In this document: positions 5,601-14,486 of the stretch, piece after piece
Position numbering within the stretch: position 1 is the first letter of the stretch
Layout of the letters: every line of letters begins with the position of its first letter
Assembly: GCA_038217285.1 (NCBI GenBank)
Contig: JBBQPO010000137.1
Location: forward strand, 1-16,221
DNA: 16,221 bases
Reading direction: 5' to 3'
Origin: Chthonomonadales bacterium
GTDB lineage: Bacteria; Armatimonadota; Chthonomonadetes; Chthonomonadales; Chthonomonadaceae
Translations under genes and position numbers: made by a program
The notes under the pieces: generated by a model
Told to the model about the DNA's origin: nothing
Database searches by the model: none
The model's input: the letters and a program-made list of their open reading frames with translations, nothing else

Positions 5601-6337
5601 TGGTCAGCCAGAAGGCGCCGACAGCGCTTTCCGCCGCGATGCATCTGGCCGATGGAGATCCTTTGATGTCGCTGCTCCAACGACAGGACGGGCATATCCT
5701 GAGCGGCATCATGGCTTTGTTGAACCTGCGCGATCCGGAGACCGACGGGCATTCCCACCGGGTAACGATGTTCGCCCTCCGTTTGGCGCAGGAGGTTATT
5801 CGACAGGACATCGCCGACCTTTGCCCGGACGATCTGCGCGATCTTACGCTCGGCTCTCTGCTGCACGACATCGGCAAAATAGGCGTTCCGGACGCCGTGC
5901 TTTTCAAGCCCGGCGCGCTGACCGATGAGGAGTGGGCGATCATTCGGGCGCATCCTGAGCAGGGCGCGAAAGTGCTGGAAGCGTTTTCGCAGTTCGTCTG
6001 CGCGTTGCCGGTCGTGCGCTCCCACCACGAAAAATGGGATGGGACCGGTTATCCGCACGGACTGGCAGGCGAGCGCATCCCTCTGGTGGCGCGGATTTTT
6101 GCTCTGGCCGATACACTCGATGCGATGTCCAGCGACCGCCCTTATCGTGCCGCCCTCCCCTACAGCAAGATATGTGCCGAGGTCGAGCGCATGGCGGGTA
6201 CGCAGTTCGATCCGGCTCTGGTGCAGGCCTTTCTCGCGATCCCGGAGGCGGACTGGGAACGGCTACGGGAGCAGGCCGCAGGCGGGCCTCCCTATATTCA
6301 GATGTCGGATGGCAGCCCCATCACGTATCCTGGATAA
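2696..6337 (+). CDS. Membrane-anchored c-di-GMP signalling protein: Reg_prop beta-propeller repeats + Y_Y_Y domain + TM helix + GGDEF + HD-GYP
   Basis: Signal-peptide-like N-terminus; many 'D..G.LWIGT..GL' propeller repeats; Y_Y_Y motif (FRYRLEGYD..W...YYTNLPPGDYKFRV.A.N.DG.W); TM segment (AACILVMGLGAWAFF); TDGMTGLAN, DVDRFK.YND.FGH..GD, RTED..ARYGGEEF; HD-GYP motifs HSHRV, LLHDIGK, HHEKWDGTGYP, DAMSSDRPYR. Confidence 0.95.
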   Translation: MQSRFLDKQRRLVIALFCLIRLVCTPHAVRALDTDKSLVQCRLDVWTTKDGLPEAINAMAQTPDGYLWFATDAGLVRFDGVTFQTFNSRNTPGFARSGVTSLMVTRDGHLWIGTDGGRFGPFENRQFTPFHTGIKDESWSVANAMLESRDGTFWIGGGGEHNLLHYKDGRFTKPLADYQFVHSLLQDRQGTIWAATRYSGLLASHTDGTVSAFNVTQGLPTAALSCIVLDSDNSLWIGTVGSGLCHYVDGKVTTYTTRDGLSSNEIHALSFDHQGNLWIGTRVGLDRRQGGKFSTFRKIDGLHDIGVSAIFEDREGNLWVGSGTGLNRFRNSKLTPLSFSTAEGLLSTTALAKGQDGSVWFGTEKGLKRLHDGLMTTYTTREGLPSNEIVTLHVAKDGTLWIITTNGCISRWTGKRFMTEVPSSHWRVIAEDSEGLVFADADDYARLTDGKFVPLPHVGRSEYVFGSYLDASGTLWFMTSGGLASVRHNRVTVLSQGLPLGTHVMSIAQAGSGCLWVGTDKGLVRYENGAMFVYGLDSGLPDDNLFALLFDAHGALWIGSSRGIFTVSVADLERYRLGTLKTIPTQLFDATDGIRSFPTRMQALRTRDERLMFLGFKGITVVDPDHLATDFVPPPVVIERVIIDRKVLDTQNVGHVGPGKGDLEIQYAGLDFSDAERVAFRYRLEGYDKDWVEAGIRRVAYYTNLPPGDYKFRVVAANSDGIWNTAGASFELKLDPFVYQTAPFKAACILVMGLGAWAFFHLSSRQLQRNNQRLELKVSERTEELHRSKEQIEAVNRRLQALATTDGMTGLANHRAFQEQLRIELAFAEATGHPLTMLLMDVDRFKTYNDTFGHPAGDEVLRSVARLIRENMRTEDYAARYGGEEFAILLPGTTEETAFEIAERIRGVVEEHQFPCRRVTLSIGVARYDARTMAPEKFVELADGALYAAKHAGRNRVVLAAEESTAVAVVSQKAPTALSAAMHLADGDPLMSLLQRQDGHILSGIMALLNLRDPETDGHSHRVTMFALRLAQEVIRQDIADLCPDDLRDLTLGSLLHDIGKIGVPDAVLFKPGALTDEEWAIIRAHPEQGAKVLEAFSQFVCALPVVRSHHEKWDGTGYPHGLAGERIPLVARIFALADTLDAMSSDRPYRAALPYSKICAEVERMAGTQFDPALVQAFLAIPEADWERLREQAAGGPPYIQMSDGSPITYPG

Positions 6338-7625: not shown

Positions 7626-7640
7626 TTGCTTCACAAGCAA
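7626..7640. repeat. Short inverted repeat TTGCTT-CAC-AAGCAA upstream of the EEP cassette
   Basis: Perfect 6-bp arms with a 3-nt spacer, just after the stop at 7619. Function unknown (operator or weak hairpin). Confidence 0.3.
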
Positions 7641-7742
7641 TCCATAGATCTCTCGCCCCCTCTCAACCCTACTCGAAATCTCTGCTCTAATGGAATGAGG
7701 GATCGTTGCGACCTAGTTTTAGATCGGGCATTGGGAGGAGCA

Positions 7743-8748
7743 GTGGAATTTCGAATTGTCGTCTGGAATTTACATGGTTTGTCTCATGCCGCTGATCCTG
7801 CTCGCCTACAGTTGGCTGCAAAAGCATTTCGCACCCTAGCCGAAGATAAGGAAATTGCTGCGTTTGCGCTTGTCGAACTCGGCACGGATTCGATCTTGGA
7901 GTATTTGGGGAACGCACTGGGGCCTGAGTGGATGCCCTGTTTTGGAGCGATCAGGGGAGGATACAGCGAGAACGGTTTACTCTTGAACACCGAAAAGCTG
8001 TCCGCAACCACGCTTCCACTGACTACCGATCCTTACTTTCCACGAGGCCGGACGATCAAAATCGGCAGAGAGCCAGCGGCTGTGTTTCAGGTGAACTACA
8101 ACATGAAACCAGCGTTTCTCATCGCTGTCGTTCATTTCAAGGCGGAACAAGGCAGAAGCGACGATTACACGCGTAAGTGTCTTGCCGCATGGCTTCGAAC
8201 GGAGTTAGAGCAACTTCTTGCTAACTCGACCGTGCCGGTCGTCATCGTTGGCGATTTCAACGGTGAACCCTATGAGGAGATGTTTGGCCCGGACGGTTTC
8301 TGTGCGTTCCGCCGAGCAGATGCGGCGCTCCGCAGCCAGGGAAGTCTGAAACTATATAACCCCATGTGGAGGCTGCTTCCCGATCAACTCACTGTTACAG
8401 CCCGTCGCGCGCAGAGTGATGGCGCGGAGAGACGCCTCCCGGCGTGACCGCGACGTTACAGCCCGTCGCGCGCAGAGTGATGATCAACCTGGAACGCCGT
8501 ACGGAACGTTTCTTGAAGGGATATGGCATTCCCTCATTGATGGTGTTATCGTGAGCAGCGAGTGGCTGAACGGCCAGCGTCACGTCCTGCACGATAACCG
8601 ACTCGAAATATTGACAGATCCTCTCTGGCATCATATTGGCGCGGAGGGGGCTCACCATACCAGACCAATGGGCATGACGAAACAGAATGCGCATCAATTG
8701 GCTATTTCGGATCACCTTCCGATTGCAGTCAATCTGGAGGTCCTATGA
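7743..8748 (+). pseudogene. Endonuclease/exonuclease/phosphatase (EEP) family nuclease, interrupted by a 61-bp insertion
   Basis: GTG at 7743 after GGGAGG gives MEFRIVVWNL. EEP motifs: WN, ALVE, VVHFK, VIVGDFN, LYNPMW in frame 1 (stop 8445-8447 inside the insert), then IDGVIVS and SDHLPI in the second frame ending at 8748. Removing one repeat plus the insert (61 bp) joins them into one 314-aa ORF. Confidence 0.88.
8394..8482. repeat. Exact 28-bp direct repeat (8394-8421 and 8455-8482) flanking a unique 33-bp insert (8422-8454); repeat-spacer-repeat unit
   Basis: Both copies read GTTACAGCCCGTCGCGCGCAGAGTGATG. The flanking bases differ (T vs C before, G vs A after), so the repeat is exactly 28 bp. 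The insert is GCGCGGAGAGACGCCTCCCGGCGTGACCGCGAC. Confidence 0.97.
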
Positions 8749-9161
8749 GTACAGAAACAACTTACACCGCAAGTATGAAGGACGCCATGATGAAGGCGCT
8801 GCTGGAGAGCAGCCAATCGCCTCCTTCGACATTGTCGGAGCTATTTACACTATTGCATGAAGCTCAGGACGCTCTCCATGAGAGCGGCTACACGGACACC
8901 ATTTTCGGCGTTCGCCAGGGCCTGAAGTCCGATTATGGTCTCCGATATACCGCCTACCTCAGCAACACGGAAGGATCGTTCGAGAACCCGATGTTCTCCA
9001 TATTCGTCGCAGACGACCAGTGCGCTTTTCAGGCGGAAGGGCAGATCCAGAGCGGTCTAACCGCTGCGCGAGTAATCGGCGAAGCGCGTACTTACCTACT
9101 GAAGCCACATGTCGTCGAATTGATGACAGGTCTGCTCCGTCAATTTGGTCGGGTGAAGTAG
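8745..9161 (+). CDS. Hypothetical 138-aa protein, translationally coupled to the EEP nuclease
   Basis: ATGA overlap at 8745-8748 with the EEP stop, and GGAGG RBS just upstream. Natural-looking soluble alpha/beta sequence with no recognisable motif. Confidence 0.8.
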   Translation: MSTETTYTASMKDAMMKALLESSQSPPSTLSELFTLLHEAQDALHESGYTDTIFGVRQGLKSDYGLRYTAYLSNTEGSFENPMFSIFVADDQCAFQAEGQIQSGLTAARVIGEARTYLLKPHVVELMTGLLRQFGRVK

Positions 9162-9169
9162 GATCTCAT

Positions 9170-9904
9170 TTAGCTTCTACTCTCCTCAACGGGTCTTTCG
9201 ATGAGTTCCAGAGGATCGTCGGTGAGGTCTGCCGGTTCGGGCTGGTAGCCGTCAGGGGTGATGGCGGCATAGAGTGCATGCGGATGTCCACTGCGGTAGG
9301 CCCAGCCCTGATCGCCATAGCTCCAGTGCCAGAACTCACTGGGATAGTTGGTGATGCCGGTGGGGATGAGGGCGTCCGCGAGGATTTGACGGTGTTTGCG
9401 GGCAGCCTCCGAAAGACCGGGCGCGGCGAACGCGAAGCCTTTGGGGTCAAACCCTTTATAGGGAGAGATGTGGTCGAATAGATTGCCTTCCGTGTCTGCC
9501 AGCATCAGGTCGACGGCAGCGCCCGTGGAGTGCGGCGGGGGAACGCGGCTGTTCTGCGGCGCGGTGAATCGATTGACCACACGGCGCAGAGTCACGTCCG
9601 ACCAGTCCGGGTGCATCTCCTTGAAGCGGTTCCAGACCGAGAGGTACATGCGGCGCTGGATATGCGGCGGTCGCCAGCCCTCCACGATGGCCAGTCGATA
9701 GCCCTCCGGCAGCGCCGCGTTCGCCTGACAGAGCCGCTCGGCAACGGACTGACGCAACAGTGTCTCCCGCCGATAGTGGAAGCGCGGACTGTCCCAGAGC
9801 AGGTCGGGGCAGAGCTGCAGGAAATCGACCAGCGGCTCACCGTTTTCGATAATACGCACGGATCTCAACTGGCTGACAGGTTCGGTAGGCGATGGGACAG
9901 GCAT
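9170..9904 (-). CDS. D-alanyl-D-alanine dipeptidase-like zinc peptidase (M15D, VanX/DdpX family)
   Basis: Motifs IVEGWRP, PPHSTGAAVDL (HxxxxxxD zinc ligands) and EFWHWSYGD. ATG at 9904 is preferred; TTG at 9922, overlapping the upstream stop, is an alternative. Confidence 0.9.
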   Translation of the reverse strand: MPVPSPTEPVSQLRSVRIIENGEPLVDFLQLCPDLLWDSPRFHYRRETLLRQSVAERLCQANAALPEGYRLAIVEGWRPPHIQRRMYLSVWNRFKEMHPDWSDVTLRRVVNRFTAPQNSRVPPPHSTGAAVDLMLADTEGNLFDHISPYKGFDPKGFAFAAPGLSEAARKHRQILADALIPTGITNYPSEFWHWSYGDQGWAYRSGHPHALYAAITPDGYQPEPADLTDDPLELIERPVEESRS

Positions 9905-9918
9905 TATGACTCGTTCTT

Positions 9919-11412
9919 TCAATTTTTTGGGGTGGGCAGTCGGAGGCCCTTTGGAATCAGCAGACGGTCGATCAGGTTGAAGCCGAACTCCACGGCCAGT
10001 GCGAGGAGGGCGGCGGGAATCGCGCCCTGCAGGATCCTGGCATTGTCGTTGAGGGTGAGGCCGCTGATGATAAGCTGCCCCAATCCGCCCGCTCCGATCA
10101 GAGCGGCCAGGGTCGCCGCGCCCACATCGATGATGGCGCTGGTCTTGATTCCGGCCAGGATCGTGCGCGAAGCGAGAGGCAGGTAGATTTTGAGGAGTTG
10201 CGCGCGGGGCTCCAGGCCCAGGGCCGCCGCCGACTCGCGCAGGGTGCTCGGAATCTCCTGCAGCCCCGTCGCAGTATTACGGACGATAGGCAGGAGGCTG
10301 TAAAGGAACAGGGCGGTGATCGCGGTTTTCGGCTGGATACCGAAAAACGGTATGGAAACCAGAAGCGCCAGAAGCGCCAGAGAAGGAATGGTCTGGATAA
10401 CGCCGACAATACCAAGAATGGCCTGACTGACGCCGCCGGGGCGACTGGCGACGATGCCCAACGGGAGGCCGACGAGAATCGCCAGCAAGAGCGAAATGCC
10501 GACCAGCGCCAGATGCTGTCCAGTCAGGGTCAGTATCGTCGAAGCTACACTGCTGCTTTCCGAGGCGTTCGAGGCTGTGCCGCTAAAGTAGAGAGCCGCC
10601 GCCTTGTTGTAGTCTTTGGTCTTCTTCGCCTCGGCATTCATGGCGATCATCTTCGCTTCCGGGATGGTGCCTTCCAGGGTCTTCAGAGCCGCGACCGCCT
10701 TCTGAGGCATGTCGAGCCGGTAGACGAAGAGCGCGTGGTATTTTGGGAAGTAGTTGCGGTCGTCTTCCAGGACGATAAGTTTGTATTCGGCGATCTCGGC
10801 GTCGGTGGTGTAGGCCTCCGTCAGGTCGATCTCCCCGTTTTTCAGCGCGATATAGGCGAGGGAATGGTCGATACCGCGCACACTCTTCAGGTTCAGGCCG
10901 TACTTCGCGTCCAACGGATGCCAGCCGTCCGGCCGATCCAGAAACTCGTGTGAAACCGCGACCCTGAGATCGGGATGCGCGGCGAGGTCGCTGATCTTAT
11001 GGATATTCAAGGTGTCGGCGCGGGATTTCTGCATCACCAGACCGTAGTTGTCGTTAAATCCCAGGTCGCCCCCGAGGCCGATACCCTCTTTCTGGAGCGC
11101 GGCACGCAGCGCCTCCGGTGTCATCTCGCCTTTGACCTTCAGGATCTCCTGCGAGATCGTCGCGGTATACTCCGGATAGACCGCGATGCTGCCGCCCTTG
11201 AGCGCCCCCCAGACGATACCGGTCGAACCCAGGTCTTCCTTGTGTTCGACCTTAAAGCCCGCCTTCTCCAGAGTCCGTTTCGCGATCTTGCCCAGCACAT
11301 TGGATTCGGGAAACTTCTTCGAGCCGATCACGATGGTCGTCTGTGCGCTCCCCGTTCTTGAGGCCAGCAGCAACAGCAGGGGCAGCATTAGCAGCAAAAA
11401 GGCTCTTTTCAA
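9919..11412 (-). CDS. Betaine/osmoprotectant-family ABC transporter, fused substrate-binding protein + permease (OpuAC/OpuBD type; candidate ergothioneine/hercynine transporter)
   Basis: Signal peptide; IVIGSKKFPES, YPEYTAT, GFNDNY, AYTTD and LEDDRNYFPKY SBP motifs; C-terminal permease with QTIPSLAL, an ESAAALG (EAA-like) loop and IGAGGLG. TTGA overlap with the upstream ATPase. Confidence 0.93.
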   Translation of the reverse strand: MKRAFLLLMLPLLLLLASRTGSAQTTIVIGSKKFPESNVLGKIAKRTLEKAGFKVEHKEDLGSTGIVWGALKGGSIAVYPEYTATISQEILKVKGEMTPEALRAALQKEGIGLGGDLGFNDNYGLVMQKSRADTLNIHKISDLAAHPDLRVAVSHEFLDRPDGWHPLDAKYGLNLKSVRGIDHSLAYIALKNGEIDLTEAYTTDAEIAEYKLIVLEDDRNYFPKYHALFVYRLDMPQKAVAALKTLEGTIPEAKMIAMNAEAKKTKDYNKAAALYFSGTASNASESSSVASTILTLTGQHLALVGISLLLAILVGLPLGIVASRPGGVSQAILGIVGVIQTIPSLALLALLVSIPFFGIQPKTAITALFLYSLLPIVRNTATGLQEIPSTLRESAAALGLEPRAQLLKIYLPLASRTILAGIKTSAIIDVGAATLAALIGAGGLGQLIISGLTLNDNARILQGAIPAALLALAVEFGFNLIDRLLIPKGLRLPTPKN

Positions 11413-12143
11413 AGTTGCACCAGGCTCCTCTGCGCGTTCAGAAACTGGGTGACGAAAGGAGCGGCGGGTCGGTCGCGCAGGTCTTCGAGAGTGCCGCGCT
11501 GCACGATGGCCCCTTCCGAGAGGAGCACGATCGAGTCCCCCAGATAGCCCGCCTCGCCCATGTCGTGGGTGACCAGCACGACCGTCTGCTTCAGGGTGGA
11601 GAAGATCTGTTTGAGGTCGGTCTGAAGTCCGGCGCGCACCAACGGGTCGAGCGCGCCCAGCGGCTCATCGAGCAGCAGCACCTCCGGCTCCAGCATCAGG
11701 GCGCGCATCAGACTCACACGCTGCCGCTGTCCTCCGGAGAGCTCCACCGGGTAGCGGGTCAGCCCCTCCTGCGGAAAACGAGTGAGGTCGCAGAGCTCCC
11801 GCAGGCGGGCCTGCATGGCGTCCGGCGGACGACGGAGGTGCTTCGCCATCAGCAGGACATTCTCAGCGGCGGTGAGATGCGGGAACAGCCCGCCGTCCTG
11901 GATCACATAGCCCATGCGTCGGCGCAACTCCTGTGCGGTCTGCGCGTTGACAGGCATACCATCGAAAAGAACAGCGCCCGCAGTCGGCTCCAATAGGCCC
12001 ATCATCAGGCGCAGCAGCGTCGATTTGCCGCAGCCGCTCGGCCCAATCAGCGCCGTCGTGCGTCCGGCGGGAATGGTGAGGTCGGTGGGCTGGAGGGCGA
12101 CTGTGTCGCCATAGCGTTTTGTGAGGCCCTGTAGTTCGATCAT
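11409..12143 (-). CDS. ABC transporter ATP-binding subunit (osmoprotectant/OpuCA-like), 244 aa
   Basis: Starts MIELQGLTKRYG at ATG 12143 (ATGA overlap with the egtB stop). Walker A GPSGCGKS, Q-loop YVIQ, signature LSGGQ, Walker B LLLDEP, H-loop VTHD. Confidence 0.95.
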   Translation of the reverse strand: MIELQGLTKRYGDTVALQPTDLTIPAGRTTALIGPSGCGKSTLLRLMMGLLEPTAGAVLFDGMPVNAQTAQELRRRMGYVIQDGGLFPHLTAAENVLLMAKHLRRPPDAMQARLRELCDLTRFPQEGLTRYPVELSGGQRQRVSLMRALMLEPEVLLLDEPLGALDPLVRAGLQTDLKQIFSTLKQTVVLVTHDMGEAGYLGDSIVLLSEGAIVQRGTLEDLRDRPAAPFVTQFLNAQRSLVQL

Positions 12144-13315
12144 CGCGCGCACCTGACTCCCAGCAGTCCCTGCCGATAGGTCGGCACATACCAGTTGCGA
12201 AACGTTCGGCGTCGGATACAGGCGTCTGTTGCCCACGATCCGCCCCGGCAAACGAAATGCTTGCCATCCATGTGCTCCAGCGAGTAGCCATCGTAGGGAA
12301 ACGCCTGAAAGCCGGGATAGGGCAGGAATGGCGAGGAGGTCCATTGCCAGACGCTGCCCGGCACTTCTTCGAGGTTTCTGGCCGCGAACTCCCATTCGGC
12401 CTCGGTTGGCAGTCGCTTGCCGATCCAGCGGGCGTAGGCGTCGGCCTCGTACCAACTGAGGCTGCTGACAGGCTCCGCCGGATCGATCTCTCGCAGGCCG
12501 CTCGCCCCGGCATAGGCAAATGCCTTCCCGTCCGGCGTTGGCATCCAATACTCCGGCGCGGTCGCATTTTCCTGCTCCCGCCACTGCCATCCGTCCGCCG
12601 TCCAGAGTTCGCACCGCCCATACCCGCCATCGCGCATAAATGTCAGCCATTGCGCGGCAGTAACGGGAGCATCATCCAGGGCGAACGACGCGACTTCGAC
12701 CGTATGCGCGCTCCGCTCGTTATCGTAGACGTGCCGACTGTCCGAGCCCCTCGTGAAGCTTCCCCCAGGAATGAGGCTCATCTCCATCGGAGGAGCCTGC
12801 CAATGCGCCTCCTCACTGCCGAAGAGAGCCTCCTCCGGACGCTCTGTGCGCTGCGTGATGAGCTGCAGCATTTCGACGATCGTCTCCTGATGCTGGCACT
12901 CGTGCTGATGCGCGAACTCCCACGCGTAGCCGTCGGCGATCAAAGGGTCGTCTGTGCCAAGGTCGGTTTCGTCCAGCGCCTGCAATGTGCGCTCACGCGT
13001 CGCGGAGAGGTAGGCGATGGTCTCCATTCGGGATGGCAGATGCACCCGATTGTCTTTGGGGTTATCGGGAATATTGGTGAAGAGAAAACGCAGCTTTTCA
13101 TCGCGGCAGGGACGCCGTAGCGCCTGTTCACAGACCCACGACTCCTCCGTCATGCCGATATGCCCGAAATGCCACCCGACCGGACTGTAGAAGTCATGCA
13201 CCCGCACCTGGAAATAGTCCTGCGGTACCCCGTCCAGAAGCGCCAGGGTCTTCTGCCGGGCAGCCGCCATTTTCGATTGCAGCGCCTCTTTGCGGGCCAG
13301 TTGGTCGATCTGCAT
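12140..13315 (-). CDS. egtB: Non-heme iron sulfoxide synthase EgtB (DinB_2 + FGE-sulfatase domains)
   Basis: SPVGWHFGHIG and HECQHQE give the 3-His iron site; FGE-like RLPTEAEWE, GSVWQWT, PYPGF, RGGSWAT, FRNW. Lies in an operon with egtD. ATG 13315 sits 5 nt after the mini-ORF stop; the track's GTG 13357 is the alternative start. Confidence 0.85.
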   Translation of the reverse strand: MQIDQLARKEALQSKMAAARQKTLALLDGVPQDYFQVRVHDFYSPVGWHFGHIGMTEESWVCEQALRRPCRDEKLRFLFTNIPDNPKDNRVHLPSRMETIAYLSATRERTLQALDETDLGTDDPLIADGYAWEFAHQHECQHQETIVEMLQLITQRTERPEEALFGSEEAHWQAPPMEMSLIPGGSFTRGSDSRHVYDNERSAHTVEVASFALDDAPVTAAQWLTFMRDGGYGRCELWTADGWQWREQENATAPEYWMPTPDGKAFAYAGASGLREIDPAEPVSSLSWYEADAYARWIGKRLPTEAEWEFAARNLEEVPGSVWQWTSSPFLPYPGFQAFPYDGYSLEHMDGKHFVCRGGSWATDACIRRRTFRNWYVPTYRQGLLGVRCAR

Positions 13316-13320
13316 GCTCC

Positions 13321-13476
13321 CTATACCATCCCCTGATCGAGGTAGCACCAGCGCCACTCCTCGCAGCCCTTCGCGCTCGGAGTGACATCCTGGATCTGAT
13401 CGACATGTTTACAGGAAGTTGCCATTCTATTTTGCTCCTTGTCGTCATCGACCGCAAGCAGAACGGGTTTGCTCAT
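13321..13476 (-). pseudogene. 51-aa chimeric remnant ORF: receiver-domain N-terminus fused to an internally deleted UBP-type zinc-finger protein
   Basis: Manual translation: MSKPVLLAVDDD-KEQNR-MATSCKHVDQIQDVTPSAKGCEE-WRWCYLDQGMV*. RBS AAAGGA before ATG 13476, and a second RBS AAGGAG (13440-13435) before the internal ATG 13425. Not listed in the ORF track. Confidence 0.75.
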
Positions 13477-13496
13477 GATAGGTTCCTTTCGGAGGC

Positions 13497-14486
13497 TCAA
13501 CAGAGGGGAGAGAGCAGAGAGACGTTGAACCAGCCGCGTTCGTCCTGTCGGCAGGCCAGCGTCTCCAGTTCTGCCTGACGGCAGAGGGTGTAGACATCGG
13601 AAAGCGTATACTTGTGGCTGTGCTCGGTATGCAGAATCTCTCCTGCACGGAAATCAAAACTCTCTCCGGTGGCTCCGAGCGTCACCGTCTGCTTGCAGCG
13701 GCTGATAAGCCGCATCTCGATCCGAGATTCGGCGGGAACGAACGGGGCGTGATGGTCGAACTGCGCGAGGTTGAAGTTCGCCTGCAGCTCGCGATTGCAA
13801 CGCAGAAGAATGTTTTTATTGAAGGCGGCGGTCACCCCGGCCGCATCGTTGTAGGCGGCTTCCAGCACCGTTCGGTCTTTCACCAGATCGACTCCCATGA
13901 GCAGTCGATCCTCGGGCCGCATACGGCAGCGGATGCGGTGCAGAAAGGCGGTCGCCTCCGGCCGCTCGAAATTACCGATGTTACTGCCGAGAAAAAGGAA
14001 GAGCCGTGGGCCGCTGTCGCGTGGCAGCGCGTTGATCGCGTCGTTGTATTCGCCTGCGATGGCTGTTATCGAGAGGTGAGGATACTCTGTCAGCAGGGCA
14101 AGTGAAGAGTGATGGAGAAAGTCCCGAGAGATGTCGATGGGCAGATAGTGTAGATGCGACTGTCGGGTGAGCAGAGCGTCCATGAGAAGGCGGGTCTTCG
14201 CGGAACTGCCGCTTCCAAACTCCACCAGCGTCAGGTCGCTGCCGGCCTGAACCGTCAGCTCATAGGCATGGCTTTGTAAAATAGCCTGTTCGGTGCGGGT
14301 CGGGTAGTACTCCGGCAGGCCGCAGATCTGTTCGAACAGATGCGAGCCAGGCGTGTCGTAGAAGAAACGGCACGGCAGATGTTTCTGTGCGGCGGCGAGG
14401 CCCTGAGAGACAACTGTCTGAAAGGGCAGTGGTAGATGTCGGCTCGGCGCTTCCAGAAACTCCAGCCGTTGTGTCATCGTGTGCAT
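13497..14486 (-). CDS. egtD: L-histidine N-alpha-trimethyltransferase EgtD
   Basis: Motifs K.LP..FFYD..GS.LFE.IC.LPEYYPTRTE, VEFGSGSSAKT, FLGSNIGNF, LEAAYNDAAGVTAAFNKN, RIEM.L and HTEHSHKY. GAGGT RBS upstream of ATG 14486. Confidence 0.95.
   Translation of the reverse strand: MHTMTQRLEFLEAPSRHLPLPFQTVVSQGLAAAQKHLPCRFFYDTPGSHLFEQICGLPEYYPTRTEQAILQSHAYELTVQAGSDLTLVEFGSGSSAKTRLLMDALLTRQSHLHYLPIDISRDFLHHSSLALLTEYPHLSITAIAGEYNDAINALPRDSGPRLFLFLGSNIGNFERPEATAFLHRIRCRMRPEDRLLMGVDLVKDRTVLEAAYNDAAGVTAAFNKNILLRCNRELQANFNLAQFDHHAPFVPAESRIEMRLISRCKQTVTLGATGESFDFRAGEILHTEHSHKYTLSDVYTLCRQAELETLACRQDERGWFNVSLLSPLC

Follow-up and report, generated by a model that had tools for sequence, protein, structure and literature searches.

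The stretch of DNA analysed here, called the window below, is the whole of a 16,221-nt contig (C137; GenBank JBBQPO010000137.1, assembly GCA_038217285.1) from the metagenome-bin draft genome of an uncultured Chthonomonadales bacterium (6.21 Mb in 459 contigs, 95.27% complete, 0.88% estimated contamination). One of its genes, coding for an enzyme of the EEP superfamily, is split by a 28-bp duplication of coding sequence around a 33-bp insert, and we consider it very probable that this unit is a misplaced spacer integration by the Cas1-Cas2 of the genome's own type I-E CRISPR system. Off-target integration by Cas1-Cas2 had been put forward in a preliminary description of the window, made from the sequence alone, and is now supported by the presence of a type I-E module, by the occurrence of three such units in the genome, by the resemblance of their targets to the native repeat and by empty alleles. 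The unit and the open reading frames (ORFs) that it separates are laid out as follows.

8394 to 8421, minus strand: neo-repeat copy 1, the duplicated 28-bp target; exact 28-nt direct repeat, reading CATCACTCTGCGCGCGACGGGCTGTAAC on the minus strand
8422 to 8454, minus strand: neo-spacer, the 33-nt insert; single copy in the genome, first base G on the minus strand
8455 to 8482, minus strand: neo-repeat copy 2, the duplicated 28-bp target; exact direct repeat of copy 1
7626 to 8447, plus strand: ORF, 5' part of the broken EEP-superfamily gene; stops inside the insert, below the PF03372 cut-off
8455 to 8748, plus strand: 3' part of the broken EEP gene, one frame shifted, placed by alignment with the homologue P0002; carries the C-terminal SDH motif

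In a repeat search covering positions 7800-9100 the two copies of the target were 100% identical over 28 nt, with a start-to-start distance of 61, and formed the sole direct-repeat family of this region. The insert between them occurs once in the 6.21-Mb genome, so that both observations agree with the exact duplication around a unique insert that had been claimed, and with the claim that the 33-mer is not dispersed, as it does not recur elsewhere in the genome. Both lengths are those of the native array described below: the duplication is as long as the native repeat (28 nt in 51 of 51 copies), and the insert has the modal length of the native spacers (33 nt in 43 of 50).

The type I-E locus to which the unit had been attributed is present in the genome as a complete cas operon, its array having repeats of 28 nt and spacers of 33 nt. 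On contig C74 the genes cas3, cse1, cse2, cas7e, cas5e, cas6e, cas1e and cas2e lie on the same strand, with open frames throughout. These genes exceed the NCBIfam cut-offs, the exception being the whole-Cas3 equivalog model; the models of the Cas3 core and of the HD domain pass. Among the two genes of the integrase, cas1e matched TIGR03638 with 378.9 bits (cut-off 215.6, profile positions 3-268 of 269) and cas2e matched TIGR01873 with 75 bits (cut-off 33.15, profile positions 1-87 of 87), each in an open frame. The array (C74:1-3137) adjoins these genes, is preceded by an AT-rich leader of about 200 nt and consists of 51 repeats of 28 nt, 50 of them identical and one with two differences. Its 50 spacers measure 33 nt in 43 cases, 34 nt in six and 35 nt in one, and 47 begin with G. 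A layout of 28 plus 33 nt is that of type I-E systems, in which the first base of the spacer is derived from the protospacer-adjacent motif (PAM). The native repeat was not found, with up to three mismatches, in the four same-genus genomes searched (73-98% complete). A genome of the same family (G008) holds a type I-E-like array, at C229:2-272 and C343:8225 of its own contigs, whose repeat has two mismatches, including the first base, G for C. Within the native array there is an overlap of 16 nt between spacers 33 and 34 and one of 17 nt between spacers 38 and 48, while spacer 45 and the last, truncated spacer have, by eye, a 16-mer in common in opposite orientation. That several native spacers come from the same targets suggests primed adaptation and a period of intense acquisition.

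The genome was then scanned for all exact repeats, 20 nt or longer, that recur at offsets of 25-200. This gave 307 exact runs in total, 125 of them outside the two arrays of the genome and 77 interspaced (20-40 nt, separated by 20 nt or more). Among the 30 interspaced runs of 24-34 nt, 24 have an offset divisible by 3 and resemble tandem repeats of coding sequence. In the remaining six the offset is not divisible by 3, and in three of them it is 61. Chance is excluded as the origin of the window unit, because only six of the 30 rows lie off the multiples of 3 and three of them share that single offset. Isolated interspaced duplications at offset 61 number exactly three, all of them perfect, and none exists at offset 62:

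C137:8394 (the window unit): offset 61, exact duplication of 28 nt
C194:9421-9509: offset 61, exact duplication of 29 nt
C41:5678-5766: offset 61, exact duplication of 31 nt, starting at 5676

The two units on C194 and C41, whose inserts differ from that of the window, provide the further 28+33+28 arrangements that the preliminary description had envisaged elsewhere in the genome. A search for older, decayed units (23 or more matches in 28, offsets from 40 to 100) returned none at 61-62 beyond the three perfect ones; further 28+33+28 units may be hidden in unassembled parts of the draft genome. Relative to the genes in which they lie, the three units are oriented antisense, sense and antisense. 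We read the duplications of 29 and 31 nt as 28 nt plus chance matches at the junction; by our estimate, junction extensions of 0, 1 and 3 bases over three units are not unusual.

All three targets resemble the repeat of the native array. The orientation and register of each target were set by ungapped identity to the native repeat alone. The window target matches it at 14 of 28 positions on the minus strand (9 of 28 on the plus strand), the C194 target at 14 of 28 on the minus strand in register 0, and the C41 target at 16 of 28 on the plus strand in register 2. A random genomic 28-mer, taken on either strand, reaches at least 14 matches with a probability of 0.014 and at least 16 with a probability of 0.00125. 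The three identities sum to 44, compared to 31.2 ± 3.7 when the repeat is shuffled at constant composition (this value was reached in 18 of 20,000 trials) and to 29.1 ± 3.3 for random genomic triples at the same registers, which reached it in 0 of 20,000. Matching positions cluster in the two inverted-repeat arms, with 12 of 18 cells at positions 6-11 and 11 of 15 at positions 16-20, against 21 of 51 in the rest. In the C41 target GCGGG occupies positions 16-20, as in the native repeat, and lies 8 nt from the spacer-side junction. The resemblance of the window target to a type I-E repeat, first noticed against the Escherichia coli repeat (13/28), therefore stands, the E. coli comparator being replaced by the organism's own repeat (14/28). 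In the orientation chosen by identity, all three inserts begin with G (about 0.03 by base frequency), which confirms the G start claimed for the window insert on the minus strand, and C is the last base of all three (native spacers: 21 of 50).

The capacity of the duplicated targets to fold differs from site to site. The native repeat folds with -13.2 kcal/mol and the neo-repeats of the window, C194 and C41 with -3.8, -3.1 and -9.7 kcal/mol, so that among the neo-repeats only that of C41 forms a Cas6e-type hairpin comparable to the native one. Since the window neo-repeat cannot form this hairpin, the folding predictions indicate that, as a CRISPR locus, the window unit most likely has no activity and would matter only as a knock-out.

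The window unit divides one reading frame into ORFs at 7626-8447 and 8416-8748. As 61 is not a multiple of 3, the EEP gene is frameshifted, and the 33-nt insert supplies the TGA at which the truncated ORF stops (8447). Emptied by 61 bp, the locus has a stop-to-stop frame of 355 codons, compared to 275 and 132 in the filled state; the frame is thus restored by the deletion as had been claimed. The truncated product lacks the C-terminal part with the SDH motif, which we take to be typical of the C-terminal catalytic region of the EEP family; the translation of the 3' part ends ..LAISDHLPIAVNLEVL. The 5' part scores just under the cut-off of PF03372 (22.8 bits against 24.5), a family that a 381-aa homologue of the EEP gene passes with 27.9 bits. 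The earlier label of nuclease is unproven, since the broken gene can be assigned to the EEP superfamily and no further. No near-identical intact EEP protein was found in the protein database, where the best match has 62% identity.

Judged from the alignments of homologous proteins, each of the three units splits a conserved gene: at all three sites the homologues align on both sides of the unit, in two frames, with the duplicated segment read twice. At the window unit P0002 (60% identity) aligns through amino acids 46-297 with positions 7665-8420 and through amino acids 289-381 with positions 8455-8745 in the other frame, and P0003, P0004 and P0005 align across the unit in the same way. The C194 unit lies inside an ORF of 821 aa without Pfam match, whose relatives are the C-terminal parts of large KaiC/RecA-like ATPases, and is flanked by amino acids 48-789 and 780-890 of P0010 (74% identity). 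The C41 unit lies inside a secreted protein of 218 aa, in the codons for LSAPARGDDW directly after the signal peptide, and is flanked by amino acids 1-26 and 17-218 of P0021 (93% identity). Seven matches from the protein collection are 218 aa long, the length predicted for the emptied C41 ORF (84-93% identity for P0021-P0026).

Uninterrupted alleles, the existence of which had been raised in the preliminary description, were found at the DNA level for two of the sites. Three sequencing runs (X1, X2 and X3), of which X2 and X3 come from two other metagenome studies, were compared with the window as assembled contigs. A 3807-nt contig of X2 joins position 8393 to position 8455, skipping 8394-8454, with 555 and 746 nt of flanking sequence aligned, and a 338-nt contig of X3 has the same joint; in both, 28 letters at the joint fit either side. 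Relative to the window, X2 has 8 substituted bases and 1 inserted base in 1575 nt. The filled state was recovered in run X1, in which a contig covers positions 8407-9200 and holds 15 nt of copy 1, the insert with both its junctions, copy 2 and the downstream gene. The X1 contigs leave positions 8373-8406 without cover at a depth of about 7, a gap that is uninformative on mixed alleles. In G003, a genome of the same genus, the C41 site is empty, its target being present just once, with two substitutions. DNA of the window locus had no match in 40 relatives, and DNA of the C194 locus had none in 25 relatives, so that for this site no empty allele was found at the DNA level. Taken together with the homologues, these alleles indicate that the insertions are the derived state. 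The identity of the two copies and the empty allele in strains that are about 99.4% identical imply that the window event is recent, contrary to its earlier label of fossil; the event is either younger than the split of these strains or still polymorphic.

We propose the following course of events. A type I-E Cas1-Cas2 complex, loaded with a 33-nt prespacer with a PAM-derived G as first base, would have engaged the repeat-like 28-bp stretch in the EEP gene and not the first repeat of the array. Two staggered strand transfers 28 bp apart, spaced by the rulers that normally measure the repeat, would have inserted the prespacer, and gap repair would have duplicated the 28 bp on both of its sides. 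The resulting gain of 61 bp would have shifted the frame of the EEP gene, with a stop inside the spacer and the loss of the C-terminal SDH part. The same reaction would have taken place at C194:9421-9509 and at C41:5678-5766, each time within a conserved gene. In this scheme the geometry, the cognate system, the likeness of the targets to the repeat, the derived state and the breaks in the genes are observed; we infer Cas1-Cas2 to be the enzyme, and the ruler mechanism of E. coli would be valid here by analogy. In that species, Goren et al. 2016 (PMC5039180) identified the inverted-repeat arms as the main determinants of acquisition and the anchors of the rulers, with a spacer-side cut 8 nt past GCGGG (IR2).

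The inserts themselves are related neither among each other nor to other parts of the genome. Among themselves and with the native spacers, the three have no word longer than 8 nt in common. Their longest exact matches in the genome measure 16, 16 and 17 nt, lengths that were equalled in 12, 13 and 2 of 100 shuffles, and the best extended matches reach 19/33 and 21/33. On these comparisons the inserts were not copied from host DNA, a result that speaks against repair from a template. The inserted 33-mer of the window (8422-8454) is nearly palindromic. Its predicted fold (-10.7 kcal/mol, z-score of -2.5, with 2 of 200 shuffles as good) confirms the internal stems about which the preliminary description had been cautious, while the other two inserts are ordinary in folding (z-scores of -0.41 and -1.59).

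Several results weigh against misplaced integration by the native system. The hairpin of the window insert is more stable than all 50 native spacers (minimum -8.1 kcal/mol), and the proposed mechanism does not predict it. The apparent lengths of duplication and insert (28+33, 29+32 and 31+30) would look alike under a fixed sum of 61 alone. GCGGG is in exact register in only one of the three targets, the CGGG of the window target being one base off, and the G at the first base counts for little in a genome of 60% GC, the more so as the window insert begins with G on both strands. Neither leader-like sequence nor the consensus of the integration host factor (IHF), WATCAANNNNTTR, with at most one mismatch, was found within 80 nt upstream of the three sites; the native leader is likewise without a match to WATCAANNNNTTR, so that the organism may use another signal. 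No protospacer or PAM was found for the three inserts in viral_contigs (IMG/VR), in GenBank phages or in the organism's own genome, nor a protospacer for the C137 and C41 inserts in JGI metagenome contigs or for the C137 and C194 inserts in GTDB genome contigs; in plasmids the C137 insert gave 15 records at an E value of about 0.9, which is chance level only. Native spacers used as controls were also unmatched (0 of 3 for spacers 1, 2 and 5 against IMG/VR, and 0 of 50 against the own genome, where 17-18-mers only were seen), which indicates that these collections lack the mobile elements of this organism. Finally, the link between C74 and the contigs of the targets is one of metagenomic binning, backed by the composition of the half of C74 that is free of cas genes.

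Some of these points would be accommodated by an unrelated process that adds a fixed 61 bp, such as template switching or hairpin-primed repair, the match with the period of the array then being due to chance. Such a process would account for the co-variation of duplication and insert lengths at constant sum and for the strong hairpin of the window insert. We nevertheless regard it as improbable. The 61 bp are also the period of the native array, and the shortest of the duplications is as long as the native repeat; a hairpin is present in only one of the three inserts, no insert copies host DNA, and the likeness of the targets to the native repeat goes far beyond what chance would give, a property that repair does not require.

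Less probable still is an artefact, either a mis-join in the assembly or a cas contig belonging to another organism. The draft is fragmented into 459 contigs, the compared runs are contigs and not raw reads, and two pieces of the genome are compositional outliers, namely C194 (tetranucleotide correlation coefficient r = 0.942) and the CRISPR-cas half of C74 (r = 0.765). CRISPR-cas loci are often compositionally atypical, and the other half of C74, without cas genes, fits the bin (r = 0.981, for a bin median of 0.982), in which contamination is estimated at 0.88%. A mis-join would not yield a unique 33-mer flanked by duplicated coding sequence, the same geometry is found at three separate loci, and one contig of the independent X1 assembly takes in 15 nt of copy 1 together with the insert, the second copy and the gene downstream. 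A tiny mobile element or miniature inverted-repeat transposable element (MITE) with a long target-site duplication can be dismissed: an insert between direct target duplications is the generic footprint of transposition, but the inserts share no sequence and occur once each in the genome, 33 nt cannot encode a transposase or carry the ends on which one acts, and the 28-bp duplication far exceeds, to our knowledge, those of known insertion sequence (IS) or MITE families. A dispersed mobile element was rejected on the same grounds, the inserts being unique and mutually unrelated.

Off-target integration by Cas1-Cas2, which we retain as the origin of the three units, has precedents in the laboratory. 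When over-produced, the type I-E Cas1-Cas2 of E. coli integrates off target and creates 'neo-CRISPR' loci (Nivala et al. 2018, Nat Microbiol 3:310, as reported in PMC7054753, PMC6698737, PMC9456107 and PMC11788318). The idea that such integration could seed new arrays is credited to Nivala et al. 2018 in the citing passages, and their natural evidence, from two other species, is called 'circumstantial' (bioRxiv 10.1101/148544). By these accounts, the E. coli loci share with the present units the subtype, a duplication of repeat length, an insert of spacer length outside the array and repeat-like targets. They were produced by an over-produced enzyme in the laboratory, whereas the events described here are natural and due, on our reading, to the native system of an uncultured bacterium; three events lie here in conserved genes, with empty alleles for two. 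A passage of PMC9456107 mentions a leader-like or IHF-like element beside an off-target site in E. coli and, unlike the E. coli sites as presented there, the three sites studied here have no such element beside them.

With canonical type I-E acquisition, as described in PMC5039180, the units share the 28-bp duplication, the exact register of GCGGG in C41 and the concentration of matches in the arms. They differ from it in that no leader, array or IHF-type site stands beside the targets and that two of the three have only partial anchors. The Cas1-Cas2 of Pyrococcus furiosus was found in vitro to integrate off target at repeat-like plasmid sites, and the authors mention a possible deleterious effect in vivo (PMC6698737). 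Common to that system and the present one is the use of non-CRISPR DNA with scattered repeat positions; the P. furiosus reaction is that of another subtype, archaeal and in vitro, with no inactivation of a genomic gene reported.

A more distant comparison is offered by casposons, kilobase elements that encode a casposase of the Cas1 family and generate duplications of about 14-15 bp. Both cases would involve staggered strand transfers of the Cas1 type with duplication of the target site, but here the duplication has the length of a CRISPR repeat and the insert the size of a spacer. No report of a natural, gene-breaking off-target integration was found in the literature, in a search that for the most part did not extend to subscription journals. 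The case described here represents, in nature, a reaction that is familiar from laboratory work, and one genome brings together a cognate type I-E system, matching lengths, three independent events, repeat-like targets and a pre-insertion allele in near-identical strains. On this reading, insertional mutagenesis of its own host's genes is within the reach of a CRISPR integrase. The three natural off-target sites are available for testing what the integrase requires when no leader is present. The footprint, a duplication of repeat length with an insert of spacer length, can be searched for across genomes and could inform on the frequency of misfires and on the birth of arrays. More tentatively, and as a possibility that we hold to be rather less than even, off-target integration may be a real and measurable mutational cost in the wild, a burst of adaptation having hit at least three coding sites and knocked out three genes, and the C41 unit, with its Cas6e-like hairpin, could be processed and seed an array.

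The genome holds a second CRISPR array (C73:1-1431), unrelated to the type I-E array; its repeat measures 37 nt and ends ATTGAAAC, and its spacers range over about 36-41 nt. A second cas1 gene, of generic type, is found on C56:23776-24621 (311.9 bits to PF01867). No off-target-like unit with the geometry of the second array was seen in the genome. A candidate on C119 (offset 74) was rejected as a unit of this second system and turned out to be a 37-nt tandem repeat. On C67:11813-11907 an exact 29-bp duplication surrounds a 37-bp insert (period 66), in frame within an ORF; as a CRISPR-type unit it was also set aside, its period fitting neither the type I-E array (61) nor the second array (73-78).

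Downstream of the broken EEP gene the window contains the following feature.

8745 to 9161, plus strand: ORF of 138 aa without Pfam match; its start overlaps the EEP stop by 4 nt

Because of this 4-nt overlap the ORF is probably co-transcribed with the EEP gene, and the break of the latter may have a polar effect on it. Farther along, on the minus strand (12140-14486), adjoining genes carry FGE-sulfatase and DinB_2 domains and a Methyltransf_33 domain, a pair that is presumably typical of ergothioneine synthesis (EgtB/EgtD), and a transporter of the glycine-betaine ABC type (9919-12650) adjoins them. Elsewhere in the genome, at least seven contigs (C26, C37, C80, C203, C243, C260 and C344, at about 55-121) have the same short repeat with a spacing of 46 bp, beginning about 55 nt from their start, which probably represents the end of a multi-copy element at which the assembly was interrupted.

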